Source of the DNA: Escherichia phage p000y
Sequence record: MK047718.1
DNA length: 64,000 nucleotides
Direction: 5' to 3' (one strand)
Part shown: piece by piece, positions 1 through 37,766 of the stretch
How positions within the stretch are numbered: the stretch's first letter is position 1
How the letters are laid out: the number at the start of each line of letters is the position of its first letter
The notes under the pieces: generated by a model
Told to the model about the DNA's origin: nothing
The model's input: only the letters and a program-made list of their open reading frames with translations
The model's database searches: none
Translations under genes and position numbers: made by a program

Positions 1-2
1 GC

Positions 3-1397
3 CATAACGTAATTGTTAACTGGTGTGATATTATTCCTGACTTTGGTTCATGGTCTTGGAATGTTAACGCAATCTATGTTAAGGGTGATGAATGTCGATA
101 TAATTTCGATGGTGAAAATATCACTAACGTAGGTTCAACAGGTGGTAATGTTGTAGGAATTTATCAGTTCAAAGACTGGGAATTCTACATGGGTTCTACT
201 GATGAGGAAATTCACGAATACTGCAAAGGTCGTGATTTCGTAGAATTCCTTTACGGCAGTGCATTCAATAAATCAGAGCTTATGAATCTAATTGATTTAG
301 GTGATATGCCTAAACTTGAAAAGGCTCATGAAGTTCGTGAACTGAATCGTAGTTTTAATGCAGTTGAAATTGGCGAAGAAACTGTAACTAAATTCGCGTT
401 AACCGAACAAGGTCGAGCTCTTCAAAAAGATGAGATTTCATGGTATTTGAAAGTGAAATCAGATTCAGTTCCTCAGTTAGTTTCGGTAAATGAAAATAAT
501 TTTGAAATGGAACGTATTAAAGGTAAGCCGGCATTTGAATATATTAAATCCAAATCAAGTCTTGCTCGTCCACAAATTGTTGATGCAATTTTAGATGCAC
601 TGAAATTCAGCACGGACACTTATTTTGTAAGTCCTGAAACTGTTCGCCGTGATTTCACTAAAGAGTTCTATACGAAAGTTATTGATCGTTGTGAAAGCAT
701 TCAGCCATTGATTGATTCATTTGGTAAAATCACACACGTGAACTACACTAAAATTGGACGTCTGAAGCCAATGTTGAAACAAGCTTTAGAACATCTTATT
801 CGTTATCATAACCGTTCTCAGGGACAGTACTCTGTTATTCATGGTGACCCGAACTTCAGTAATACTATGATTACCGATAACGGCGAAGTCAAGTTTATCG
901 ACCCTCGTGGATATTTTGGTGAAACCAAGATTTACGGGCCAAAATTATATGATGAAGCTAAAGTGCTTTATGCTGTTTCAGGTTATGATGAATTCAATGC
1001 TAATCCGACCTGGGGACAGTTTACTATTGATGAAACAACTTGTAATGTGACTATTAACATCAATCCATTAGTTTACAAATATGGAAAGATGAGTTCGTTT
1101 AACGAGTATCATCATTTGGCTGTAGCAATTATCTGGATTGCATTAGGTGGTTATTTCAAGAATAATCCACTTAAAGCGGTTGCCGCATATTATAAAGGTA
1201 TGGAACTTCTGACTAAGCAATTACGTAACATGGGCCGTGTACTTCAAGACGGCTCTATTAGTTATGACGTAGCAGAACCTGTAACGGCTACTCTGATTAC
1301 AAAAAATCCTGGTAAATGGGTACTAACTGATAAAGAAACTGGTGTTTCCTATCGTCCAATCGGCGGCGATATCACTCATCAATGGGAACGAATCTAA
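3..1397 (+). CDS. Kinase-fold protein (APH/choline-kinase-like), probably 5'-truncated by the window edge
   Basis: Frame is open from nt 3 with no stop before the ATG at 189 and no clear SD at 189. Brenner-type motif HGDPNFSN...KFIDPRGYFG typical of APH/ChoK-like phosphotransferases. Confidence 0.5.
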   Translation, partial: HNVIVNWCDIIPDFGSWSWNVNAIYVKGDECRYNFDGENITNVGSTGGNVVGIYQFKDWEFYMGSTDEEIHEYCKGRDFVEFLYGSAFNKSELMNLIDLGDMPKLEKAHEVRELNRSFNAVEIGEETVTKFALTEQGRALQKDEISWYLKVKSDSVPQLVSVNENNFEMERIKGKPAFEYIKSKSSLARPQIVDAILDALKFSTDTYFVSPETVRRDFTKEFYTKVIDRCESIQPLIDSFGKITHVNYTKIGRLKPMLKQALEHLIRYHNRSQGQYSVIHGDPNFSNTMITDNGEVKFIDPRGYFGETKIYGPKLYDEAKVLYAVSGYDEFNANPTWGQFTIDETTCNVTININPLVYKYGKMSSFNEYHHLAVAIIWIALGGYFKNNPLKAVAAYYKGMELLTKQLRNMGRVLQDGSISYDVAEPVTATLITKNPGKWVLTDKETGVSYRPIGGDITHQWERI

Positions 1398-1783
1398 TGC
1401 ACCGTGTAGAAAACATGCTTAATCTTTGTTTTGATGTCGATGATTGTATAACAGAGTGGAATAACAATCGTGATTACGTGAACTTCAAACCAGACGTCGA
1501 AATGGTGTCTGCCATTAATGCCCTGTATGATGCAGGGCATACCATAACGCTTTACACTGCCCGTGGTATGAAGTCGGTAGGTCCTGGTCGTATAGCAATT
1601 GACATTCTCCCAAGTCTGATTCAGAACTTGGAAAACATTGGTTTGAAGTACCATAATTTGCTAACACATAAACCAGTATATGATTGGATTATCGACGACA
1701 AAGCTATGCGTCCTGACGAATTCAAAGCTCTTATGAATAAAGGCGAATTCGAAACATTTAAATCATATAAACCAAATCTATAA
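1397..1783 (+). CDS. Small HAD-superfamily phosphatase-like protein
   Basis: TAATG overlap with the upstream ORF. N-terminal FDVDDCIT (DxDx motif I), later TARG and IDDKA motifs consistent with a capless HAD fold. Track start 1382 is an alternative. Confidence 0.5.
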   Translation: MHRVENMLNLCFDVDDCITEWNNNRDYVNFKPDVEMVSAINALYDAGHTITLYTARGMKSVGPGRIAIDILPSLIQNLENIGLKYHNLLTHKPVYDWIIDDKAMRPDEFKALMNKGEFETFKSYKPNL

Positions 1784-1829
1784 TAATTTAAGTAAGACCT
1801 GCAAAAACCATCGCATCAATTAACGCGAG

Positions 1830-2999
1830 ATGCAAAAAATGAATACTTTTAAAATCGGAACGAATTTTGATTTAGCTCTTCTTGATAAAATCGTAGAGCT
1901 CAATAAAACCTATCCTAATAGCTTGATAAACGAAGTATATGGCTCTACAAGAGAAATGGCTTTTGTAGCAGCCAGACCTGATTTTAGGCTTCCTGACGTT
2001 GACAAAAAGATGTTAGAAGACTACGTTAAACGTTGTAACGAATTAGGTATTTGCTTTAACTATACACTCAACACGATAAATCCTGGTTCAAAAAGAGAAC
2101 TAGTTGAGTGGAAGAAGAAAGCTATTCAGGATTATGTTCAGTATCTTTGGTCAATAGGCGTATGGCGTATTACTATCGCTAACCCTGTTGTTATGGAAAT
2201 TGTTCGTGAAGTCAATAAAGATATTGAGATTGAAGTTTCAACAATTCTACATGTCGATGCGGTAACTCAAATCAAATACTTACATGACCAATATAACATC
2301 AAAAAGGTCTGTTGCGGAATTCATAAGAACCGTTCAGTTTCTTTCCTGAAGCGTGCAGCAGAGTTTTGCAATAAGAACAATATAATATTTGAAGTTCTTG
2401 TAAATGAGTTCTGTTCTAATGCTGGTAAAGGGTATACAACACATTGTAGTTATCGTGACTCTTGCTATATTTTCCATAGTACTGATGTTACCGCTGATGA
2501 TGCTAAATCCTTAAATGGATATCCTATGCAGCACTGTATTAAAGCTCGTGATACAGACCCATTTAACTGGTTGAGAACTCGTTTTGTTCGTCCTCAAGAT
2601 TTGAAACTTTATAATGATATTGGTATCACTCAATTCAAAGTTTCAGGACGTACAGGTAGCACAGACTACATTTTGAAAGTTCTTGAAGCATACGCTTCTG
2701 AAAAGTTTGAAGGTAATTTGTTAGAACTGTGGAAGCCTTTAGAGACTATTTTCACTCTTGAAAATGAGACTGAGTTTTCACATACAGTAAATATTGAAAC
2801 CTCTTTGTTAGATGGCTTTTTAGAAAAAAGGTGGTTCAGACATCCAGATTTTGATTGTGCTAATGAAATCTGTGGGTCAACGTGTACATATTGTGAAAGG
2901 TATTATAAACGTCAATTATCTAAAAACGGGTTAGCAGAAAACTCCATATCTATTATTGATATAACTAACTCTGATGACGCTTTGAGGTACCCGGAATGA
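1830..2999 (+). CDS. Cys-rich 389-aa enzyme, peptidase-U32-like (RlhA/TrhP/UbiU family) by motif resemblance; alternatively an Fe-S protein with C-terminal CxxxCxYC
   Basis: Segments EVYGSTRE, FEVLVNEFCSNAGKGYTTHCSYRDSCY and ITQFKVSGRTGSTDYILKV resemble U32 TIM-barrel motifs as I recall them. C-terminal CANEICGSTCTYC cluster. Family call is unverified. Confidence 0.4.
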   Translation: MQKMNTFKIGTNFDLALLDKIVELNKTYPNSLINEVYGSTREMAFVAARPDFRLPDVDKKMLEDYVKRCNELGICFNYTLNTINPGSKRELVEWKKKAIQDYVQYLWSIGVWRITIANPVVMEIVREVNKDIEIEVSTILHVDAVTQIKYLHDQYNIKKVCCGIHKNRSVSFLKRAAEFCNKNNIIFEVLVNEFCSNAGKGYTTHCSYRDSCYIFHSTDVTADDAKSLNGYPMQHCIKARDTDPFNWLRTRFVRPQDLKLYNDIGITQFKVSGRTGSTDYILKVLEAYASEKFEGNLLELWKPLETIFTLENETEFSHTVNIETSLLDGFLEKRWFRHPDFDCANEICGSTCTYCERYYKRQLSKNGLAENSISIIDITNSDDALRYPE

Positions 3000-3235
3000 T
3001 TTCTAGAAAAAGTTTTAATTATAAACTTAACGAAGAGATTTTGACTATGAAACTGAACACTAACGAACAAATTCTTAAAAAGGCCCTTATGGGCCTGTTT
3101 GAAACCAAAGCGGCTAAAGTGATTAAAGAACCTGTTCAATTGGAATACTACACTGATGCATTCCTTCATAGTGTTCTTGGAAGTATAGATTCTGAAGCTT
3201 TACGTTATATCAACATTGTCAAGAAATTCAAATAA
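2996..3235 (+). CDS. Hypothetical protein (79 aa)
   Basis: ATGA overlap with the upstream gene; same-strand packing. Confidence 0.4.
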   Translation: MISRKSFNYKLNEEILTMKLNTNEQILKKALMGLFETKAAKVIKEPVQLEYYTDAFLHSVLGSIDSEALRYINIVKKFK

Positions 3236-3277
3236 GCTTTACGAATTGAGTATATAATAAATTGTATTGAGGTAAAC

Positions 3278-3994
3278 ATGGGAAAACATAACACAATGAA
3301 ATATATCAAAGCCGCAGATTTTCAAACCGCATTTAAAGCAGTCAATCGTGAAATTTTAGAAAACCCGGAATTCGTAACTGATTCTCGTATTGGACGTTGT
3401 AATGAAATTGGGTCTATGACAGTAGTTGTTGACACTCCATCATCATTCAAAATGACCGACCCACGTATTAACCGCATCTCTTATGAATATGCCGAAGACT
3501 TCTGGAAGTTTATGATTTCTGGTGGTACCAACGCAGAAGAAGCGTTTAAGGCATATCCTAATGTCGCTAAATTTATTTCTAAACCAAAATCAGATGTTTT
3601 GCCGGCGAACTTCAACACTTTCTATGGTCCTCGCATTGCGGCCCAATTACCAACTCTTCTAAAAGAACTTAAAGAAAAACCTAACTCTCGAAGAGTTGTG
3701 TTCCAAATTCTAGAAAGTTCTGATCAGGCTTTGCTTGATTCGGACGAAACACTTGAATATCCATGTACTGACTCAGTAACTTATTATATTCGTGATGGTA
3801 AGCTTTATACCCACTGTCATATGCGTTCTCAGAACTGTGCTGTTGTTATGCAGTTGGATTTTTATCTCCAAGGAAAATTACTTCATTATATCGCTAACGA
3901 ATGCGGTGTAGAAGTTGGTGATTATACTCATACCATGGTAAGTGCCCATGTGTTTGAACGTGATTTTGATTATGTTAAAGGATTCCTTGACTAA
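3278..3994 (+). CDS. 42: Deoxypyrimidylate hydroxymethylase of the thymidylate-synthase family (gp42-like dCMP hydroxymethylase)
   Basis: PNSRR, PCTDSVTYYIRD (catalytic Cys) and MRSQN...QLD motifs align with T4 gp42 PDSRR, MCTNTVQYLIRD, MRSND...RND. Sits directly upstream of the uvsX block as in T4. Appears more diverged than neighbouring core genes. Confidence 0.75.
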   Translation: MGKHNTMKYIKAADFQTAFKAVNREILENPEFVTDSRIGRCNEIGSMTVVVDTPSSFKMTDPRINRISYEYAEDFWKFMISGGTNAEEAFKAYPNVAKFISKPKSDVLPANFNTFYGPRIAAQLPTLLKELKEKPNSRRVVFQILESSDQALLDSDETLEYPCTDSVTYYIRDGKLYTHCHMRSQNCAVVMQLDFYLQGKLLHYIANECGVEVGDYTHTMVSAHVFERDFDYVKGFLD

Positions 3995-4893
3995 TGGCTA
4001 TTTTCCGCGTACCAATCTTGAGTATGCGGTCTTATGAAACTGGACAGTATGCTATCCTTAAGGATGGCAACTTCCAACTTCATTTGCACCGTGCTAATCC
4101 GGGTGATGTGATTACATATCCACGTAATGCATCTGATATTAAAGAATGCGAACGTCTTTTCCCAGAATTTAAGTTTGTTCCATTATGGTATAAAGATAAC
4201 GCGTATAACACTCGTAAATATTTCTGGACTGAAAATGAATTTGTGGTTGATTCATTAATTGATTATTATGATTGTGATTTTCTAATCACAGATATCACTG
4301 GTTATGGCGGCGCTTTTGATGTGGAATTCAATTTCAATATCACTGCAGACCCTAATAAACCACGTTTTTATATTGATGAATTCTTAAAAACCGACATGTT
4401 GTCTGTTAATCGTTCACTTCAAACTACTGTGTTGAATGAACGTCAAAAAGAAGTGCTGGTTAACGCAGGTGCAGATGGTAATAAGATTATCGTAACGCAG
4501 AAAGTTATACGTCCTTCCATCATGCAGCGTCTTGTAGGTGATTTGGCTCCTATTCATCTAGATGGTATTTTTCATCCATTTCGAATTAGTGACCCATGTT
4601 ATCGTTTTGAACAAGTGGTTGAATGTGCAATTCAATTAGGTCAACCGCTTTATATAACCGATCCAAATAATAGCTTCGACAGAAATAAGTATCCTGAAGA
4701 AGCGCTGATTCGAATTTTTAAACCAACTAAAACTGAGTACTATCAAATTCTTAAAGGACGTCCGAAAATTCAATATTTCGAAAATCCTGAAGAAGTATTC
4801 CATCCAGGTCTTGGTGAGTTCATCTACTTTAATGCTTTAATTTCTTCGCCGTATAATATACCTAAATACGAAGATGTCGTAATCGAGGAATAA
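3994..4893 (+). CDS. Hypothetical protein (299 aa) in the position T4 uses for beta-glucosyltransferase
   Basis: TAATG-coupled to gene 42. No resemblance to T4 beta-GT that I can see. Contains a YYDCDFLITD (DxD-like) segment. Function is inferred only from position. Confidence 0.5.
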   Translation: MAIFRVPILSMRSYETGQYAILKDGNFQLHLHRANPGDVITYPRNASDIKECERLFPEFKFVPLWYKDNAYNTRKYFWTENEFVVDSLIDYYDCDFLITDITGYGGAFDVEFNFNITADPNKPRFYIDEFLKTDMLSVNRSLQTTVLNERQKEVLVNAGADGNKIIVTQKVIRPSIMQRLVGDLAPIHLDGIFHPFRISDPCYRFEQVVECAIQLGQPLYITDPNNSFDRNKYPEEALIRIFKPTKTEYYQILKGRPKIQYFENPEEVFHPGLGEFIYFNALISSPYNIPKYEDVVIEE

Positions 4894-4894
4894 A

Positions 4895-5443
4895 ATGGCT
4901 AAAATTATTTTAGTAGATGGCCCGGATAATGCTGGTAAAACAACTTTCATTAATGACATAATGGAAATTAGTGAAAGATATGTAAAGATTGATTTCCCTA
5001 AACGAACAGTTGATGGACGTTTCGATGTTAAGTCTCGAAATGAAGTTGGCTGTTTCGAAACGATGTTGAATTATTTAGACCCTACTAAGATTTATCTGTT
5101 AGACCGTGGATATATTAGTAACTGGGTTTATGGACGTATTCGACAAGATGCGGACTCGATTCTTGACGTTTATGAACAGGACTATGTTCGTCTTTGCCAA
5201 AACCATGATGTGTTCACAATTATTTTAACACGTAACGAAATGACTGAAAGTTTTGAAGACGACCTTATTACTTTGTCTTCATTCGGTTTTAATACAGTCA
5301 TTTCACATTTTGAAGAGTTTGCAATTCATAACAAAATCCAAACGTATCAATTACTTAATCATGATGGTGCTAACAAAGTTATAGGATTTAATGCAAGCGA
5401 ACGTAATTATTTGATTACAGAAATTATCAAATGGGCTCGTTAA
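4895..5443 (+). CDS. P-loop nucleotide kinase, thymidylate-kinase-like
   Basis: Walker A GPDNAGKTT and LLDRGYISNWVYG (TMK-like DR(Y/H)xxSxxxYxG) motifs; 182 aa. Confidence 0.5.
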   Translation: MAKIILVDGPDNAGKTTFINDIMEISERYVKIDFPKRTVDGRFDVKSRNEVGCFETMLNYLDPTKIYLLDRGYISNWVYGRIRQDADSILDVYEQDYVRLCQNHDVFTIILTRNEMTESFEDDLITLSSFGFNTVISHFEEFAIHNKIQTYQLLNHDGANKVIGFNASERNYLITEIIKWAR

Positions 5444-5461
5444 GAGCCATTTAAAGTTTTA

Positions 5462-5488
5462 AATGCTGTATAACCCTTAGTATATAAT
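5462..5488 (+). promoter_or_regulatory. Candidate MotA-dependent middle promoter upstream of uvsX
   Basis: MotA-box-like aaTGCTgtA with TATAAT starting 19 nt after the TGCT core; same spacing as the candidate upstream of gene 39. Confidence 0.4.
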
Positions 5489-5541
5489 CATCTTATCTTT
5501 TAAACATGAGTAAAATATAATGATGCCTATGGAAAAATACA

Positions 5542-25801: not shown

Positions 25802-26902
25802 ATGAAAGTTATGTTTATCCCATCTCGCGCAGTCCCATTTAACCCAGAACGTGTACAAGGTGGTCTTGAAGCAGTACATTTAAATGTGTTGAAATATTTA
25901 GTTTCTATCTGTGCTGATATTGATTATATCGGTTTTGATAATGACACATTTGGTGATTGGAAGGTTAATCATCATCCTGTTGGTCATCTGACAAAATTCA
26001 GTCTAGGTATGAGTTATACTATGGCTCGTAAGATTGTTGAACTAGCCGGCATCCATGAATACGATTTCGTTGTTACTATGGAACCGACTAAACTAACCGT
26101 TCAGGCAATTAAAGACGCAGGCCTCTCTAAAGTTCATAAGAATTTTATGGCAACACCATTTGAACCGGTATCTCGTGGCATTGTTCAAATTTGGGACCAG
26201 ACTATTCAAATTCATAAGAATGGTGGTAAGAGTTATGCTCCTACTAAAGCCTTCCGTGAATTTGAACGCAAATATTGTTATATGACTTCAGGTCTGACTG
26301 ACAAAATTGATTATGATTATTGGCGAGCAAATCCGTTGTTTGAAGCCGAAGATTATCCGGTTATTTGTTTGAATGAGAAACCTGAAGTTCTTCCGGCGAC
26401 GGATCTGATTATTAGTGCACAACGTTATGACACTAAAATGCGTCGTACTGATGTTGCTCTTGAAGCGATTAAAGCACTAGGCGAAAATGGTGCAGGATAC
26501 TGTCCTAGTAAATGGGCACCACCAGCTAAATATCCTGTTATTATTGATGCTCCACACAGTGAAATCATGGAACGCCTTAAAACAGCTAAAGCACTTATTA
26601 ATACGTGTCCTGACACAGGTACGGTAGAGAATAGTTCTATTGAAGCCATCTCTAAAGGTGTCCCTGTAATCCAGTTAGTTTTTAAGGATTATCCTCATGC
26701 GACATTTGAATACGACCCAGATACTGTGCGTGTAGAAATTGATTCCTCTACTCCTAAGAAAGAAGTAGTTGCGCTTTACACAAAAGCTGTATTAGAATTC
26801 ACTGACACATACGAAGCTCGAGTTAAACGTGCTGAAGCAGTATGGAAGAAGTATAACCGAGATGCAGTTGTTGCGATGTGGGATAAAATCTTCACAGCGT
26901 AA
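25802..26902 (+). CDS. GT-B fold glycosyltransferase (GT4-like), candidate DNA sugar transferase
   Basis: C-terminal DTGTVENSSIEAISKGVPVI resembles the GT-B EX7E / donor-binding segment; 366 aa; inserted between 39 and rIIA. Confidence 0.55.
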   Translation: MKVMFIPSRAVPFNPERVQGGLEAVHLNVLKYLVSICADIDYIGFDNDTFGDWKVNHHPVGHLTKFSLGMSYTMARKIVELAGIHEYDFVVTMEPTKLTVQAIKDAGLSKVHKNFMATPFEPVSRGIVQIWDQTIQIHKNGGKSYAPTKAFREFERKYCYMTSGLTDKIDYDYWRANPLFEAEDYPVICLNEKPEVLPATDLIISAQRYDTKMRRTDVALEAIKALGENGAGYCPSKWAPPAKYPVIIDAPHSEIMERLKTAKALINTCPDTGTVENSSIEAISKGVPVIQLVFKDYPHATFEYDPDTVRVEIDSSTPKKEVVALYTKAVLEFTDTYEARVKRAEAVWKKYNRDAVVAMWDKIFTA

Positions 26903-32825: not shown

Positions 32826-34151
32826 ATGCAATTGAATTCTCGTAATCTAAAAAGTATTATTGATAACGAAGCCTTAGCATATGCGATGTACACCGTTGAA
32901 AACCGTGCAATCCCAAACATGATTGATGGATTTAAGCCGGTTCAACGTTTTGTGGTCCATCGTGCGTTAGATTTGGCTCGTGGTAATAAAGAAAAATTTC
33001 ATAAACTTGCGTCAATTGCAGGCGGTGTTGCAGATTTAGGTTATCACCATGGTGAATCTTCTGCACAAGATGCAGGTGCATTGATGGCTAACACATGGAA
33101 CAACAACTATCCACTGTTAGATGGCCAAGGCAACTTTGGTTCTAGAACAGTCCAAAAAGCTGCAGCATCTCGTTATATTTTTGCTCGTGTAAGTAAAAAT
33201 TTCTATAACGTATATAAAGATACTGAATATGCTCCAGCTCATGAAGATAAAGAACACATTCCACCAAAATTCTATCTTCCTATTATTCCGACAGTTCTTT
33301 TGAATGGCGTCTCTGGTATTGCAACCGGTTACGCAACAAATATTCTGCCTCATAGTTTTAAATCGGTAAAAAAGGCTGTATTACAAGCTCTTCAAGGTAA
33401 AAATGTCACTAAGCCAAAAGTTGAATTCCCGGAATTCCGTGGTGAAGTACATGAAGTTGATGGGCGTTATGAGATTCACGGAACGTATAAGTTCACATCT
33501 CGCACTCAAATGCAGATAACTGAAATCCCATATAAATTCGACCGTGAAACGTATGTGAGTAAGGTTCTTGACCCGTTGGAAGACAAAGGTCTAATCTCAT
33601 GGGAAGATGATTGTGGTGAACACGGCTTTGGGTTTAAGGTGAAGTTCCGTAAAGAGTACTCGCTTCCTGATGATGAAGAGCTACGTCATGAAAAAATCAT
33701 GAAAGATTTTAGTCTCATCGAACGTCGTTCACAAAACATCACAGTGATTAATGAAAAGGGTAAATTAGCTGTCTACGATAACGTAGTGGACTTAATCAAA
33801 GATTTTGTTGAAGTCCGTAAGACTTACGTTCAGAAACGTATTGACAACAAAATCCTTGAATCTGAAAAAGCATTTAAACTGGCTTTTGCTAAGGCACACT
33901 TCATCAAAAAAGTTATCAACGGTGAAATTGTGATTCAGGGCAAGACTCGTAAAGCTTTGACTGAAGAGCTAGCACAAATAGAAATGTATAAAGAACATGT
34001 CGATAAACTGGTAGGTCTTAACATCTTCCATATCACTTCCGATGAAGCACGTAAACTAGCCGAAGAAGCTAAAGCTAAGAAAGAAGAAAATGAGTATTGG
34101 AAGTCTACTGATGTTGTGACAGAGTACACTAAAGACTTGGAGGCACTTTGA
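32826..34151 (+). CDS. 52: DNA topoisomerase II medium subunit (GyrA-like)
   Basis: 441 aa; N-terminal ENRAIPNMIDGFKPVQRF, typical of type IIA topoisomerase A subunits; position matches T4 gene 52. Confidence 0.9.
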   Translation: MQLNSRNLKSIIDNEALAYAMYTVENRAIPNMIDGFKPVQRFVVHRALDLARGNKEKFHKLASIAGGVADLGYHHGESSAQDAGALMANTWNNNYPLLDGQGNFGSRTVQKAAASRYIFARVSKNFYNVYKDTEYAPAHEDKEHIPPKFYLPIIPTVLLNGVSGIATGYATNILPHSFKSVKKAVLQALQGKNVTKPKVEFPEFRGEVHEVDGRYEIHGTYKFTSRTQMQITEIPYKFDRETYVSKVLDPLEDKGLISWEDDCGEHGFGFKVKFRKEYSLPDDEELRHEKIMKDFSLIERRSQNITVINEKGKLAVYDNVVDLIKDFVEVRKTYVQKRIDNKILESEKAFKLAFAKAHFIKKVINGEIVIQGKTRKALTEELAQIEMYKEHVDKLVGLNIFHITSDEARKLAEEAKAKKEENEYWKSTDVVTEYTKDLEAL

Positions 34152-34228
34152 GTGCCCTAGCCTTAGGATTTCTCGGTGCAATAGCTGCACTAGTGATTTG
34201 GCTGTATTGGTTGGACAAACATGATTAG

Positions 34229-34247
34229 GGAGCTTCGGCTCCTTTTT
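34229..34247 (+). terminator. Intrinsic terminator after gene 52
   Basis: GGAGC-TTCG-GCTCC followed by T5. Confidence 0.65.
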
Positions 34248-34268
34248 GTGCATTTTTCTCACAAAACA

Positions 34269-34298
34269 GTTTACACGTGCTTCAAACATGATATTATA
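34269..34298 (+). promoter_or_regulatory. T4-type early promoter upstream of motA
   Basis: GTTTAC, CACGTG palindrome in the spacer, A/T-rich -10. Confidence 0.45.
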
Positions 34299-34336
34299 AA
34301 CCTATCAAAACAAAACAACCGAATTGGAGAAATAAA

Positions 34337-34969
34337 ATGTCTAAAGTTACTTACATCATCAAAGCTTCTGAAAACGCTCTGAATGAAAAAACTGCTGCAA
34401 TAATGGTTTATATCATTAAGAACAACTTCACCACTGCTGCCAATGTCCGTGAAGCTCTGGAAGCAGAATACAATGCATCGGTTGTTAACTCTAACATTGG
34501 TGTATTGATTAAGAAAGGTTTGGTCGAAAAATCCGGTGATGGACTTGTAGCAACAGGCGAAGCAATGGATATTATCCAAAAAGCTGCAGACCTATTTGCT
34601 CAAGAAAATGCTCCAGAACTTCTTCAGAAACGTAACACCAGAAAAGCACGTGGAGTTACTCCTGAAATGCATGAATTAGCAAACTTTGTTTTTGAAAATA
34701 TTAAAGATAAAGTTGAAGTTAAAGAAATTGGTGAAAACCGTAGTAACTTAGAAGTTCGATTTGCAAAACGAGTTCTAGGTATTCGTCAGATCGAAATTCG
34801 TCGAGATGGCGCTCTTAGAATCTTTGCATACAACATGTCAGAAACTGAATCAAAGCTGTTTACTTCTCTTGAAAATGATGTTAAGATTAAGATCGGTGGT
34901 AAATATACTTACATTGACTTCCCTAATGTGTCCAAAGAAATCATTACCCTTGTAACTAACGTACTGTGA
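34337..34969 (+). CDS. motA: MotA middle-transcription activator
   Basis: MSKVTYIIKAS...VVNSNIGVLIKKGLVEKSGDGL...QENAPELL matches T4 MotA as recalled; 210 aa. Confidence 0.9.
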   Translation: MSKVTYIIKASENALNEKTAAIMVYIIKNNFTTAANVREALEAEYNASVVNSNIGVLIKKGLVEKSGDGLVATGEAMDIIQKAADLFAQENAPELLQKRNTRKARGVTPEMHELANFVFENIKDKVEVKEIGENRSNLEVRFAKRVLGIRQIEIRRDGALRIFAYNMSETESKLFTSLENDVKIKIGGKYTYIDFPNVSKEIITLVTNVL

Positions 34970-34979
34970 GGAATACATA

Positions 34980-35309
34980 ATGAATAAGCTGAATATTATT
35001 AACGAACTTCGTAAATGTGCAGAACCTACTCAGGAAGGATGGGATATTTGGTACCACGGGGCTTATTTAGGGACAATTGTAAAGATTAAAGCAGGCCAAT
35101 ATACGGTTATTCGTGAAAATAATGACGCGCCATTTGGCCTTCGTAAAAACTACATGGCAGCGATCAGTTCATTTGTTGATGCAGCTTACGAAATCTATAA
35201 AGAAGATTATAAAGAATATCAGCAGTCACAACCGGTTATTCGTTCAATTGGTGTTAACAAAGCTCAGCAGAAAACTTTGTGGCAACGTATTAAAGGATGG
35301 TTTAAATGA
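34980..35309 (+). CDS. Hypothetical protein (109 aa)
   Basis: ORF in the motA-asiA interval. Confidence 0.5.
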
Positions 35310-35767
35310 AAACTTTTAAAGAACGTTTAGCTCTGTTAGATAAAGCTTTGACGCGTGAGACTCCGGAAAGTCTGGCTGCTAAATTAGCTTCTTACGGTGG
35401 TGAATATACAGAACAAAATGTTTTAGATGAAGTTCCTGAAATCTGTTGGCAGACTCTGTATTGGGATGAAAACCAAAAGTATCAACGACGAATTGTCTGC
35501 GCAGCCAACCGTTTTAAATTAAAAGATGGACGAACTCTTATTATTCCAGGTGCTCGTCATTATTCTAAAGATATGGCAGAAGTTTTAGATGTAGTTAAAC
35601 CTCAATTAGTTACTCAACAAGTTTGTGATGATGACCAAGGGTTTATTGACCAGTATAGTAATTATTGGACACGTGAAGAAGCAATGATTATTGCAACTTA
35701 CGCTGGACAAGTACGTATTGAACGTGGTGGTAATGAAAAAGAACTTTACTCTGAGGACCTTTACTAA
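35306..35767 (+). CDS. Hypothetical protein (153 aa)
   Basis: ATGA overlap; contains IVCAANRF...PGARHYS...[16 protein letters not shown]. Confidence 0.5.
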
Positions 35768-36048
35768 TGAATCTTAAACAACTCCAGATTGATGCTATTG
35801 AAGCCCACATTAATCATATCAAACGCCTGAATGCTATGATGGAAGAAAATTATGGTATGTATGCTAATCAGCCTGGTTGGGATGCTTTAGACCATCCTTA
35901 TTTGGTTAATTTATGTAAAGGTGATACGTTAGCAATTATTCGTGATGGGTTAAAACCTTTCTTGCGCGACATGTATATTAAAATGAACGAAGAAATTATT
36001 AGCTCGTTGCAATATCAATTAAGGAAATTAGATGATGAGAATAATTGA
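35767..36048 (+). CDS. Hypothetical protein (93 aa), in the arn-region
   Basis: TAATG overlap; T4 has arn and arn.x genes in this interval. Confidence 0.45.
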   Translation: MNLKQLQIDAIEAHINHIKRLNAMMEENYGMYANQPGWDALDHPYLVNLCKGDTLAIIRDGLKPFLRDMYIKMNEEIISSLQYQLRKLDDENN

Positions 36049-36250
36049 TTCTAAAGCAGATTATTTTAATTCTGTTAATGATAAGAATAAAGCTTTAATT
36101 CGCCACTTTATTACTGAGATGGGTTATACTGACTCTAAAGATTTGAAAGAGCACATTATCGAATGTTCTGTGGCTAAAAAGTTTTCTTTCACAGACAAAT
36201 GTTTAAATGAGGTTATAAATCATTATGAACAATCTTGTAGCAAAACATGA
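36032..36250 (+). CDS. Hypothetical protein (72 aa)
   Basis: Overlapping, tightly packed ORF. Confidence 0.4.
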   Translation: MMRIIDSKADYFNSVNDKNKALIRHFITEMGYTDSKDLKEHIIECSVAKKFSFTDKCLNEVINHYEQSCSKT

Positions 36251-36633
36251 TTTCAATAAGGCTTCTGTCCATAAGGACAAAAAGAAATCAGAACTTCAAT
36301 CTAAACGTAAACAAAAACATAAGGGTAAAGACTATGCTTACTAAAATCAAAGAAAATCCTGCCACTGAACTTGTTATTCGATGTGAAGAACTTGCAGAGC
36401 TTTATCAGGTTAACCGAGAAGTGTGTCGTAGTGTTATCGTAGATATGGAAGATGAAGTCTGTTCTCGTATTCCTTTTAGTGTCGATTTCAATCACATGAA
36501 GCCCGGTGAAATCACTATCGTCTTTGGTTCTGACTATACTGAAGAACGGGCTCTTAACGTCCTAGAATATGAAATGTCGTTTTTCGACATACAGGACTAT
36601 ATTGATAGTTATAAGGAACGATATGAGTCATAA
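36247..36633 (+). CDS. Hypothetical protein (128 aa; alternative start at 36334)
   Basis: ATGA overlap at 36247; an internal ATG at 36334 has an AAGGG SD. Confidence 0.45.
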   Translation: MISIRLLSIRTKRNQNFNLNVNKNIRVKTMLTKIKENPATELVIRCEELAELYQVNREVCRSVIVDMEDEVCSRIPFSVDFNHMKPGEITIVFGSDYTEERALNVLEYEMSFFDIQDYIDSYKERYES

Positions 36634-36784
36634 TCTTCAGAACGTAGTAGAGGCCGAACGTGAGCGCGAGGCTTTAGTCTATAATGAACTATTAGTTCAA
36701 TTCTTGGTCTTACACTCGTATGAACAGGAAGACTATACCAATTACGTTAAAAGCGTAGAAAAAGCCGTTTACAATCAACACTGA
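36623..36784 (+). CDS. Hypothetical protein (53 aa)
   Basis: ATG 36623 with AAGGAA SD; the track start 36569 lies inside the previous ORF. Confidence 0.35.
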   Translation: MSHNLQNVVEAEREREALVYNELLVQFLVLHSYEQEDYTNYVKSVEKAVYNQH

Positions 36785-36830
36785 TAATGGTACTATATCC
36801 ATATCAACTAAGTGGAATGAATAAAACGTT

Positions 36831-37103
36831 ATGAATAAAGACATTGAAATCGTACGTGAAATTATTACTATTGCTTCTATTTTGATTAAATTCTCTAGGG
36901 AAGATATTGTTGAAGACCGAGCAAGTTTCATCGGATTCTTGAATGAGATTGGAATTAAAAAAGATGGTCGGCAGCTAAATCAGAATTCTTTTAGAAAACT
37001 AATTACAAATTTAACTGCCGAAGAAAAGAAAACACTGATTAGTGAATTCAATGAAGGTTTTGAAAATATTTATCGTCATTTAGCGATGTATTCTAACAAC
37101 TAA
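36831..37103 (+). CDS. asiA: AsiA anti-sigma70 factor
   Basis: MNKDIEIVREIITIASILIKFSREDIVEDRA...NEGFENIYRHLAMYSNN near-identical to T4 AsiA as recalled. Confidence 0.9.
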   Translation: MNKDIEIVREIITIASILIKFSREDIVEDRASFIGFLNEIGIKKDGRQLNQNSFRKLITNLTAEEKKTLISEFNEGFENIYRHLAMYSNN

Positions 37104-37766
37104 TTATTTAGCCCTTCCTAGTATTCGGATCGCTTGGTTACATATAGCCGCTAAGCGATCTTCCTCAAGTATATTATTATTCCCCTTATACCAATACATC
37201 GTCACAGTTCCAGCATAGATGTTATCCAAATTAAAGTATGGACAACTATACATATAAGAAAGTTCGGCAGTTTTAGATTTTGTAGGCAAAAATGCAAATT
37301 CTGATTTAGACGAGAAATGACGGCCACTTAAATGAATTATATATTCATTGGCCGTTTTATCCACCGGGAATCCGCCAAGGGACTTTTCAGAAATTGTGCT
37401 AGGTAGTTTGCCTTCATAAGCTATAAGGTCGACAAAATAATTTAAGTTTTTAGGTCTGAAAGAATACACAGCACTAAAATCTGCACCAGATGAGATATGA
37501 ACTATTTGCAGTTGTTCTAGAGCCGCAGATTCAAAACGTAAAGCTCGTTCTTTTTGGATTATTTCAGTATAAGTATCATACTTAGCTCTTACATAATAAT
37601 CCAGCAAAATACTTCCTTTGTACCATATTAGTGCCATTAGGAACAAAAGAATAATTACCGCTACTCGGGACATTAAAACCTTTCCAGTAGCGTTATCTTT
37701 GAAAATACGATCTAGCAACCCAAATAGAATATCACTAGGCGAAAATGACACTTTTGGTGTTGCCAT
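37104..37766 (-). CDS. t: Holin T
   Basis: SFSPSDILFGLLDRIFKDNATGKVL...FSAVYSFRPKNLNYFVDLIAYEGKLPSTISEKSLGG...YMYSCPYFNLDNIYAGT matches T4 holin T as recalled. Confidence 0.9.
   Translation of the reverse strand: MATPKVSFSPSDILFGLLDRIFKDNATGKVLMSRVAVIILLFLMALIWYKGSILLDYYVRAKYDTYTEIIQKERALRFESAALEQLQIVHISSGADFSAVYSFRPKNLNYFVDLIAYEGKLPSTISEKSLGGFPVDKTANEYIIHLSGRHFSSKSEFAFLPTKSKTAELSYMYSCPYFNLDNIYAGTVTMYWYKGNNNILEEDRLAAICNQAIRILGRAK

Follow-up and report, generated by a model that had tools for sequence, protein, structure and literature searches.

A highly diverged Arn-family protein probably occupies the arn slot between motA and asiA in Escherichia phage p000y

In Escherichia phage p000y (MK047718.1), of which we analyzed a stretch of 64,000 nucleotides (nt; here called the window), the genes for MotA and AsiA enclose an interval of small genes at positions 34,980 to 36,784. 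We identified these as arn.4, arn.3, arn.2, arn.1, a gene for a microprotein of 39 amino acids (aa) from the DUF7230 family, a diverged member of the Arn family, and asiA.1. The interval is probably the form that the T-even “arn operon” takes in Mosigvirus, with a highly diverged Arn-family decoy, a protein of 99 aa, in the place of T4 Arn. T4 Arn is a DNA mimic that inhibits McrBC restriction of non-glucosylated hydroxymethylcytosine (hmC) DNA and binds H-NS (PMC12707154). This divergent Arn class aside, the operon is mosaic, syntenic, and ordinary for a T-even phage. We found no report of the class in the annotations, family libraries, or papers searched, and identifying it is a modest finding at the level of annotation. 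Current annotation treats RB69-like phages as devoid of Arn: the RB69 equivalent of the 99-aa protein, RB69ORF259c, is “hypothetical”, its family phrog_8202 is of “unknown function”, the Pfam family DM_Arn does not reach the 99-aa protein, and a survey of modification genes from 2021 gives no Arn for Mosigvirus (PMC8056088).

The 99-aa protein is very probably homologous to T4 Arn (PDB 3WX4; Pfam DM_Arn, PF22134), to which it is ~15% identical. In family-against-family comparison, hhalign gave a probability of 89% (E = 2.3e-6) with a collinear alignment of 83 columns, residues 9–91 against 7–92; the 99-aa family against T4 Arn alone gave 54% (E = 1.2e-4). A hidden Markov model (HMM) of the 99-aa family, built without any T4-type sequence, gave T4 Arn a score of 31.6 bits, which fell to 22.0 bits when bridging sequences were also left out. 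The best of 5000 shuffles of T4 Arn reached 12.0 and 11.8 bits with these two models, and the next unrelated score among all open reading frames (ORFs) of the fetched loci was ~3 bits. The two proteins are also linked by P0015, a metagenomic protein of 91 aa that matched the family profile at E = 6e-7 in a HMMER search of 1.84 billion representative proteins and shares 29% identity with the window protein (E = 9e-15) and 33% with T4 Arn (E = 7e-11). Its contig is T4-like, with the order DUF7230 gene, P0015, MSHNL-type asiA.1, asiA, and holin. In all these genomes the position is the same, downstream of arn.1 and upstream of asiA.1 and asiA, in synteny with T4, VR25, RB69, and the P0015 contig. 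All Arn variants have 91–99 aa, an isoelectric point (pI) of 4.2–4.6, and a net charge of −9 to −15, and share the C-terminal motif [DE][IL]xDY[IFL]. The charge check proposed in the original prediction agrees with this: like T4 Arn (92 aa, pI 4.55, net charge −9.2), the 99-aa protein is of about the expected 90 aa and strongly acidic (pI 4.33, net charge −12.4). Finally, a fold search with the predicted model returned 3wx4, the T4 Arn structure, as the single best PDB match by two methods, and the model would have the same three-dimensional fold as that crystal structure.

Several observations weigh against this account of the locus. BLAST of the 99-aa protein against T4 Arn returned no match, and the protein did not match Pfam DM_Arn even at E ≤ 10; the bridging P0015 itself scored only 16 bits on DM_Arn, for which the cutoff is 26 and T4-type proteins score 131–178 bits. 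The Foldseek match to 3wx4 has a weak E-value (0.018), and many proteins share small alpha/beta folds of this type. Moreover, the model is itself a prediction from an alignment of 11 sequences, and AlphaFold may have learned 3WX4 during training. Asn70 of T4 Arn aligns with Thr69 of the window protein, and no MotA-box promoter was found within 34100–37200. In addition to the threonine in place of Asn70, the window protein differs from T4 Arn by an eight-residue C-terminal extension (SYKERYES), and almost none of its surface residues are common to T4 Arn. The statement in the original prediction that nothing in the interval obviously matched Arn therefore holds by BLAST and at the Pfam threshold; the profile and structure searches that it suggested did reveal a remote homolog, one that stays below the DM_Arn threshold. 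Arn membership of the 99-aa protein is detectable only by profile and fold methods.

The original prediction had placed six plus-strand ORFs between motA and asiA, in the position of the T4 arn region (34980–35309, 35306–35767, 35767–36048, 36032–36250, 36247–36633, and 36569–36784), and we confirmed their coordinates and, by comparison with the T4 gene order, this placement. Since all six match a PHROG family (E = 1e-30 to 1e-72) and the ratio of nonsynonymous to synonymous substitution rates (dN/dS) of the interval genes against RB69 is 0–0.35, they are genuine genes and not chance ORFs. However, the fifth has 99 aa and not the 128 first assigned to it, and a seventh gene (36225–36344) had been overlooked; the last ORF has 71 aa in full and 53 aa when counted from the ATG at 36623. 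We rejected the 128-aa form (36247–36633): no homolog has its basic N-terminal extension, and that DNA encodes the conserved 39-aa gene in another frame. All homologs of the 99-aa protein begin with M[LI]TK, which corresponds to the ATG at 36334, with AAGGG ahead of the start codon, and the PHROG profile covers only residues 30–124 of the longer form. With a dN/dS of 0.15 against RB69 and an occurrence in 178 phage records, the 99-aa ORF is a functional gene. Positive selection within the Mosigvirus class was considered and is not evident, the pairwise dN/dS values of 0.15–0.26 indicating purifying selection.

Two other explanations of the Arn slot were weighed. An unrelated small acidic protein could have entered the slot and converged on the size, the charge, and a common alpha/beta fold. 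We find such a non-homologous replacement very unlikely, as the profile score to T4 Arn is 22–32 bits where composition-matched shuffles reach at most 12, hhalign aligns the two collinearly along their whole length, the intermediate P0015 sits in the same slot and is clearly similar to both proteins, both proteins carry the C-terminal DY motif, and 3wx4 is the sole best PDB match by the two methods. The original prediction itself supposed that other anti-defense proteins may have replaced the T4 set, in keeping with a different DNA modification; in this phage the modification would be arabinosyl-hmC and not glucosyl-hmC. This reading would agree with the putative arabinosyltransferase RB69ORF003c encoded in the window (25802–26899, 99% identity), with the absence of a T4-type Arn from the window, and with the published survey that has no Arn for Mosigvirus (PMC8056088 Table S3). 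However, five of the six ORFs are plain orthologs of T4 genes (arn.4 to arn.1 and asiA.1), and the sixth belongs to the Arn family. The tie to a different DNA modification is contradicted by slur14, a phage reported to carry glucosyltransferases, which holds the same Arn variant at 98% identity; Shigella phage A2, with T4-type motA and asiA, has a copy that is 77% identical. On these comparisons the replacement reading is refuted for five of the six ORFs, and as an account of the locus we regard it as scarcely credible. One Arn-like ORF among arn.x orthologs is essentially the outcome that its author had named as speaking against it, and the interpretation largely fails. What survives is a different target specificity for the Arn ortholog, which is plausible because the Arn slot is ~15% identical to T4 Arn while the neighboring proteins are 40–83% identical to theirs.

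We thus retain a highly diverged Arn homolog as the occupant of the slot. From a functional perspective, the 99-aa protein would act like T4 Arn, as a small acidic decoy that occupies the DNA-binding surface of host proteins attacking or silencing phage DNA. Characteristic of the Arn family is a homodimer in which acidic side chains imitate the phosphate pattern of duplex DNA. Candidate targets of the 99-aa protein would be a type IV restriction enzyme such as McrBC, the protein H-NS, or further defense proteins that sense DNA. By analogy with T4 Arn, we lean slightly towards a DNA-mimic anti-defense role, and we hold it doubtful that McrBC in particular is among the targets; the target of the window protein may differ from that of T4 Arn. 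It is also possible, if on the unlikely side, that the main task of this Arn homolog is something other than anti-restriction, directed at H-NS, at another nucleoid or transcription protein, or at a non-nuclease defense such as PUA-Cal-HAD. T4 Arn binds H-NS (PMC12707154), and it blocks the PUA-Cal-HAD defense by binding the PUA domain, with single residues setting the specificity: the change N70S, as in T2, abolishes the inhibition (PMC12871103). The surface of the window protein, almost wholly unlike that of T4 Arn, would be in line with such a change of task. However, the Asn70 critical for PUA-Cal-HAD is not conserved in the window protein, and a role of this kind overlaps with the decoy explanation rather than competing with it. 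T7 Ocr, ArdA, and lambda Gam are likewise small, strongly acidic, early-expressed proteins of phages or plasmids thought to be DNA decoys; no sequence or fold similarity of the 99-aa protein to Ocr or ArdA was found.

A few other matches of the 99-aa protein were discarded. A phmmer search against the PDB returned the PP7 coat protein, with E = 0.001 for the tandem dimer and only E = 1.2 for the single coat protein; it is absent among the listed fold-search matches, and we consider it spurious. Prok-E2_B, DUF4276, ATG14, MphB, and other Pfam and NCBIfam matches all lie far below their cutoffs.

The family of the 99-aa protein is narrow. Searches of 5.8 and 1.8 billion proteins gave six and four clusters, plus two genuine representatives, P0011 and P0015; the six clusters, from the 5.8 billion proteins, are all at least 80% identical. 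The 178 phage records that carry the 99-aa type are mostly Mosigvirus among those listed; in 13 of them the same slot holds a form of ~30% identity, for example in the Gaprivervirus VR25. The T4-type Arn occurs in 485 phage records, all at least 88% identical, and was not found anywhere in the window. The two types therefore look mutually exclusive, alternative occupants of one slot. A Klebsiella Jiaodavirus protein in the same slot scored 25.7 bits with the 99-aa family profile; in the loci fetched from Tegunavirus, Pseudotevenvirus, Aeromonas, and Vibrio relatives, the profile matched nothing. We also observed in BFVD that uncharacterized proteins of Escherichia phage EcS1 and of Klebsiella phages AmPh_EK29 and KP179, with ~86–92 aa, have a predicted Arn-like fold (template modeling scores of 0.56–0.73 and 14–18% identity to the 99-aa model), a hint that more Arn classes exist.

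The Arn variant is not confined to one genus. In the survey cited above, Supplementary Table 3 records Arn in none of the Group II (Mosigvirus) and Group III phages, and the Arn entry is also empty for a handful of Group I phages, among them slur03, slur14, and slur08, for which the A-gt and BA-gt glucosyltransferases are listed (PMC8056088). We found the Arn variant of the window in slur14 (Tequatrovirus slur03; LN881736). From gp52 into the 5′ part of arn.4, its locus (1–5497) matches T4 at 95–100% identity; beyond roughly the arn.4/arn.3 junction, as far as asiA, t, gp38, and distal gp37, it matches the window at 96–100%, so that slur14 is a clean inter-genus recombinant. Together with the A2 locus, this indicates that the variant moves between genera by recombination in conserved flanks, and it possibly hitch-hikes with the tail-fiber module. 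The variant is not coupled to the type of cytosine modification and coexists with either sugar, which corrects the idea that it accompanies arabinosyl-hmC. The locus of phage p000y is likewise a recombination mosaic between Tequatrovirus and Mosigvirus. The synonymous rate (dS) of arn.3 is 0.09 against Shigella phage A2 and 1.0 against RB69, and a tract within this gene is nearly T4-like (Table 1). DNA identity to T4 is 70–85% up to 36330, falls to the random level of 33–48% across 36331–36780, and recovers at asiA.

The slot may hold at least five deeply diverged Arn classes, of the T4, Mosigvirus, Gaprivervirus, P0015, and Klebsiella Jiaodavirus types, which are mutually 15–35% identical. 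This variable slot lies between the near-invariant DUF7230 gene and asiA, and the classes would cross genera through recombination in these flanks. Only tentatively, we propose that it is a hypervariable anti-defense cassette in a conserved operon, each class being tuned to different DNA-binding defense proteins of the host and the Mosigvirus class blocking something other than, or besides, McrBC. With a divergent Arn recognized in RB69-like phages, Arn changes from a single T4 protein to a family of several deeply diverged classes in one fixed slot, and the RB69-like form becomes a concrete candidate to test. Because one residue change can switch the inhibition by Arn, the natural classes would form a panel for mapping the defenses that DNA mimics disable.

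The remaining genes of the interval and its flanks are listed in Table 1. Orthology to T4 was assessed by BLASTP of the window ORFs against T4 proteins; the E-values of the Arn.4 to Arn.1 orthologs range from 4e-20 to 1e-93, and their order is that of T4. AsiA.1 is less similar, and its MSHNL N-terminus is invariant and its position constant in the seven phage lineages aligned, with a semi-conserved segment E-x-V-x-E-x-E-R-x-R-E. The RB69 annotation of 2003 names arn.4 to arn.1 and leaves the last two genes, RB69ORF259c and RB69ORF258c, “hypothetical”, assigning them neither a function nor a connection to Arn or AsiA.1. Each of these two shares 92% identity with its counterpart in the window, the 99-aa and the 53-aa protein respectively, and occupies the same position, and we found no substantive difference between them. 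No function has been assigned to arn.1–arn.4 and asiA.1 in T4 or T2 either (bioRxiv 10.64898/2026.06.19.733364). The label “anti-restriction nuclease” on some of these small genes, in GenBank records and in phrog_4452, appears to stem from the gene name and not from evidence.

Table 1 Features of the motA–asiA region of phage p000y in window coordinates; the last four columns give the identity (%) of the window proteins to their counterparts in RB69, Shigella phage A2, VR25, and T4
Feature	Position	Strand	Description	RB69	A2	VR25	T4
Promoter-like site upstream of motA	34270–34297	+	Sigma-70/T4-early type, TTTACA-16-TG-TATTAT; consensus scan, 10/12 matches				
motA (left flank), 210 aa	34337–34969	+	Pfam MotA_activ, 133.8 bits, and MotCF; phrog_1345; 51% identity to T4 MotA				
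arn.4 ortholog, 109 aa	34980–35309	+	Basic, pI 9.3; 82% identity to T4 Arn.4 over 67 aa; phrog_1594, full length	94	83	80	81
arn.3 ortholog, 153 aa	35306–35767	+	82% identity to T4 Arn.3 over full length (153 aa), E = 1.5e-93; phrog_839	80	98	82	83
Mosaic/recombination tract within arn.3	35453–35752	+	~300 bp, 92–100% DNA-identical to T4, flanks 40–80% (sliding identity)				
arn.2 ortholog, 93 aa	35767–36048	+	40% identity to T4 Arn.2 over 90 aa, E = 4e-20; phrog_1844				
arn.1 ortholog, 72 aa	36032–36250	+	74% identity to T4 Arn.1 (annotated 43 aa); phrog_4452, full length				
DUF7230 microprotein gene, 39 aa	36225–36344	+	Very basic; overlaps end of arn.1 and start of Arn homolog; RB69 figure from identical translation	100	97	82	79
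Divergent Arn-family protein, 99 aa	36334–36633	+	pI 4.3; equivalent to RB69ORF259c; probable DNA-mimic decoy	92	77	33	15
asiA.1 ortholog, 53 aa	36623–36784	+	Acidic; 30% identity to T4 AsiA.1 over 40 aa; phrog_5245	92	50	32	26
Promoter-like site upstream of asiA	36768–36796	+	GTTTACA-17-TG-TACTAT; consensus scan; promoter function inferred				
asiA (right flank), 90 aa	36831–37103	+	Pfam AsiA, 111 bits; 73% identity to T4 AsiA	98	71	52	72

The seventh gene, which lies at the end of arn.1, encodes MNNLVAKHDFNKASVHKDKKKSELQSKRKQKHKGKDYAY (pI 10). It matches DUF7230 (PF23876) over its full length with 49.3 bits (cutoff 27) and also phrog_1359, a family of no assigned function; for the copies in T4 and VR25 the scores are 44.9 and 49.2 bits. 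The T4 and VR25 peptides are 79–82% identical to that of the window, with substitutions mainly at the third codon position (6/4/17 by position). The dN/dS of the gene is 0–0.08. By tblastn the gene is present in 1485 phage records, including T4-like phages of Klebsiella, Vibrio, and Aeromonas, and no other gene of the interval, Arn included, is conserved nearly as widely across Straboviridae. It fills the 83 nt that separate arn.1 from arn; a spacer of equal length is unannotated in the T4 reference (NC_000866), and we flag this widely conserved 39-aa gene as missing there. A suspected likeness to the ribosome-rescue factor ArfA was not borne out, since BLASTP found nothing, a PDB profile search found nothing at E ≤ 10, and hhalign gave 0.2%.

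The T2/T4 arn operon has the same genes, order, and orientation between motA and asiA as the window. In T2, a single middle transcript spans arn.4 to arn (bioRxiv 10.64898/2026.06.19.733364), and the middle transcript of the T2/T4 operon is stabilized by the host small RNA (sRNA) ArcZ. In the window both arn.4 (109 aa) and arn.1 (72 aa) have their full length, the pairing site for ArcZ is kept only in part, and the arn gene belongs to another sequence class. The seven small genes are co-oriented and tightly packed, with overlapping stops and starts, and their overlaps of 1–26 nt suggest translational coupling. By homology with T2, they would be transcribed together, early or middle in infection, from a start upstream of motA or within the cluster; the promoter-like site at 34270–34297 is the probable start of a transcript running through the interval. 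A MotA-box middle promoter inside the interval was sought and rejected: there was no exact match and a single poor one with one mismatch, inside motA. Given the lack of a MotA box in 34100–37200, this transcription scheme is one that we only infer. In the whole window, MotA-box-like patterns (TGCTTNA, 11–13-nt spacer, TANNNT) occurred 14 times, where 3.8 are expected by chance.

The comparison also bears on the T4 annotation of arn.4 and arn.1. In T4 (NC_000866, reverse strand, downstream of motA) an ATA replaces the ATG start of full-length arn.4, which is present in slur14, A2, RB69, and the window. The 42 upstream codons remain open in T4 and encode a sequence highly similar to full-length arn.4, so that the 68-aa annotation of T4 Arn.4 reflects a start-codon change and not a shorter family. 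The 29 extra N-terminal residues of the window Arn.1 are likewise conserved in T4 “intergenic” DNA. In T4, the 70-nt “intergenic region” between arn.2 and arn.1 (equivalent to 36032–36118 of the window) has no stop codon in the frame of arn.1, and its translation shares ~70% identity with the N-terminal part of the 72-aa Mosigvirus Arn.1; T4 could plausibly start at a TTG that follows AAGGTG. In the window arn.1 overlaps arn.2, so the counterpart of the 70-nt region of T2 is coding sequence, and this region of T4 and T2 may be coding as well. A 2026 preprint reports that it holds an RNase E site controlled by ArcZ (bioRxiv 10.64898/2026.06.19.733364). In the window, the Shine-Dalgarno region of arn.1 (36020–36029, plus strand, TAAGGAAATT) aligns with the T4 arn.2 3′ sequence CCAGGGAAAT, which occupies +285 to +294, the positions reported for the ArcZ sRNA pairing site in T2; the site is partly conserved in the window. 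Shigella phage A2 (OP197928, 2224–2611) has no arn.1, its arn.2 directly abutting the DUF7230 gene, which indicates that arn.1 is dispensable in at least one lineage. The AlphaFold model of Arn.3 from a single sequence was unusable, with a predicted local distance difference test score (pLDDT) of 40.

Finally, the wider surroundings are those expected of a T-even phage. The DNA of 34300–37150 shares 99.4% identity with Escherichia phages mobillu, moha, and vB_EcoM_WFbE185 and 98% with many further Mosigvirus (RB69-like) phages, and the source of the window is a Mosigvirus, an RB69-like T-even phage. On the plus strand, gp52 (32826–34151) and motA are followed by the small ORFs and asiA, and after asiA come holin t, gp38, and gp37 on the minus strand, which matches the T4 order 52-motA-arn.4-arn.3-arn.2-arn.1-arn-asiA.1-asiA-t-38-37. 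The RB69ORF003c homolog, a putative hmC arabinosyltransferase on the plus strand, has 99.2% amino-acid identity to the RB69 protein, and because of this copy the phage is presumably of the arabinosyl-hmC type, a typing drawn from earlier work (PMC6024577; PMC8594841). The spacer between gp52 and motA (34152–34336) has no counterpart of T4 motA.1, its alignment to T4 consisting mostly of gaps; in the related record AV110, a hypothetical ORF of 71 aa is annotated in this spacer.

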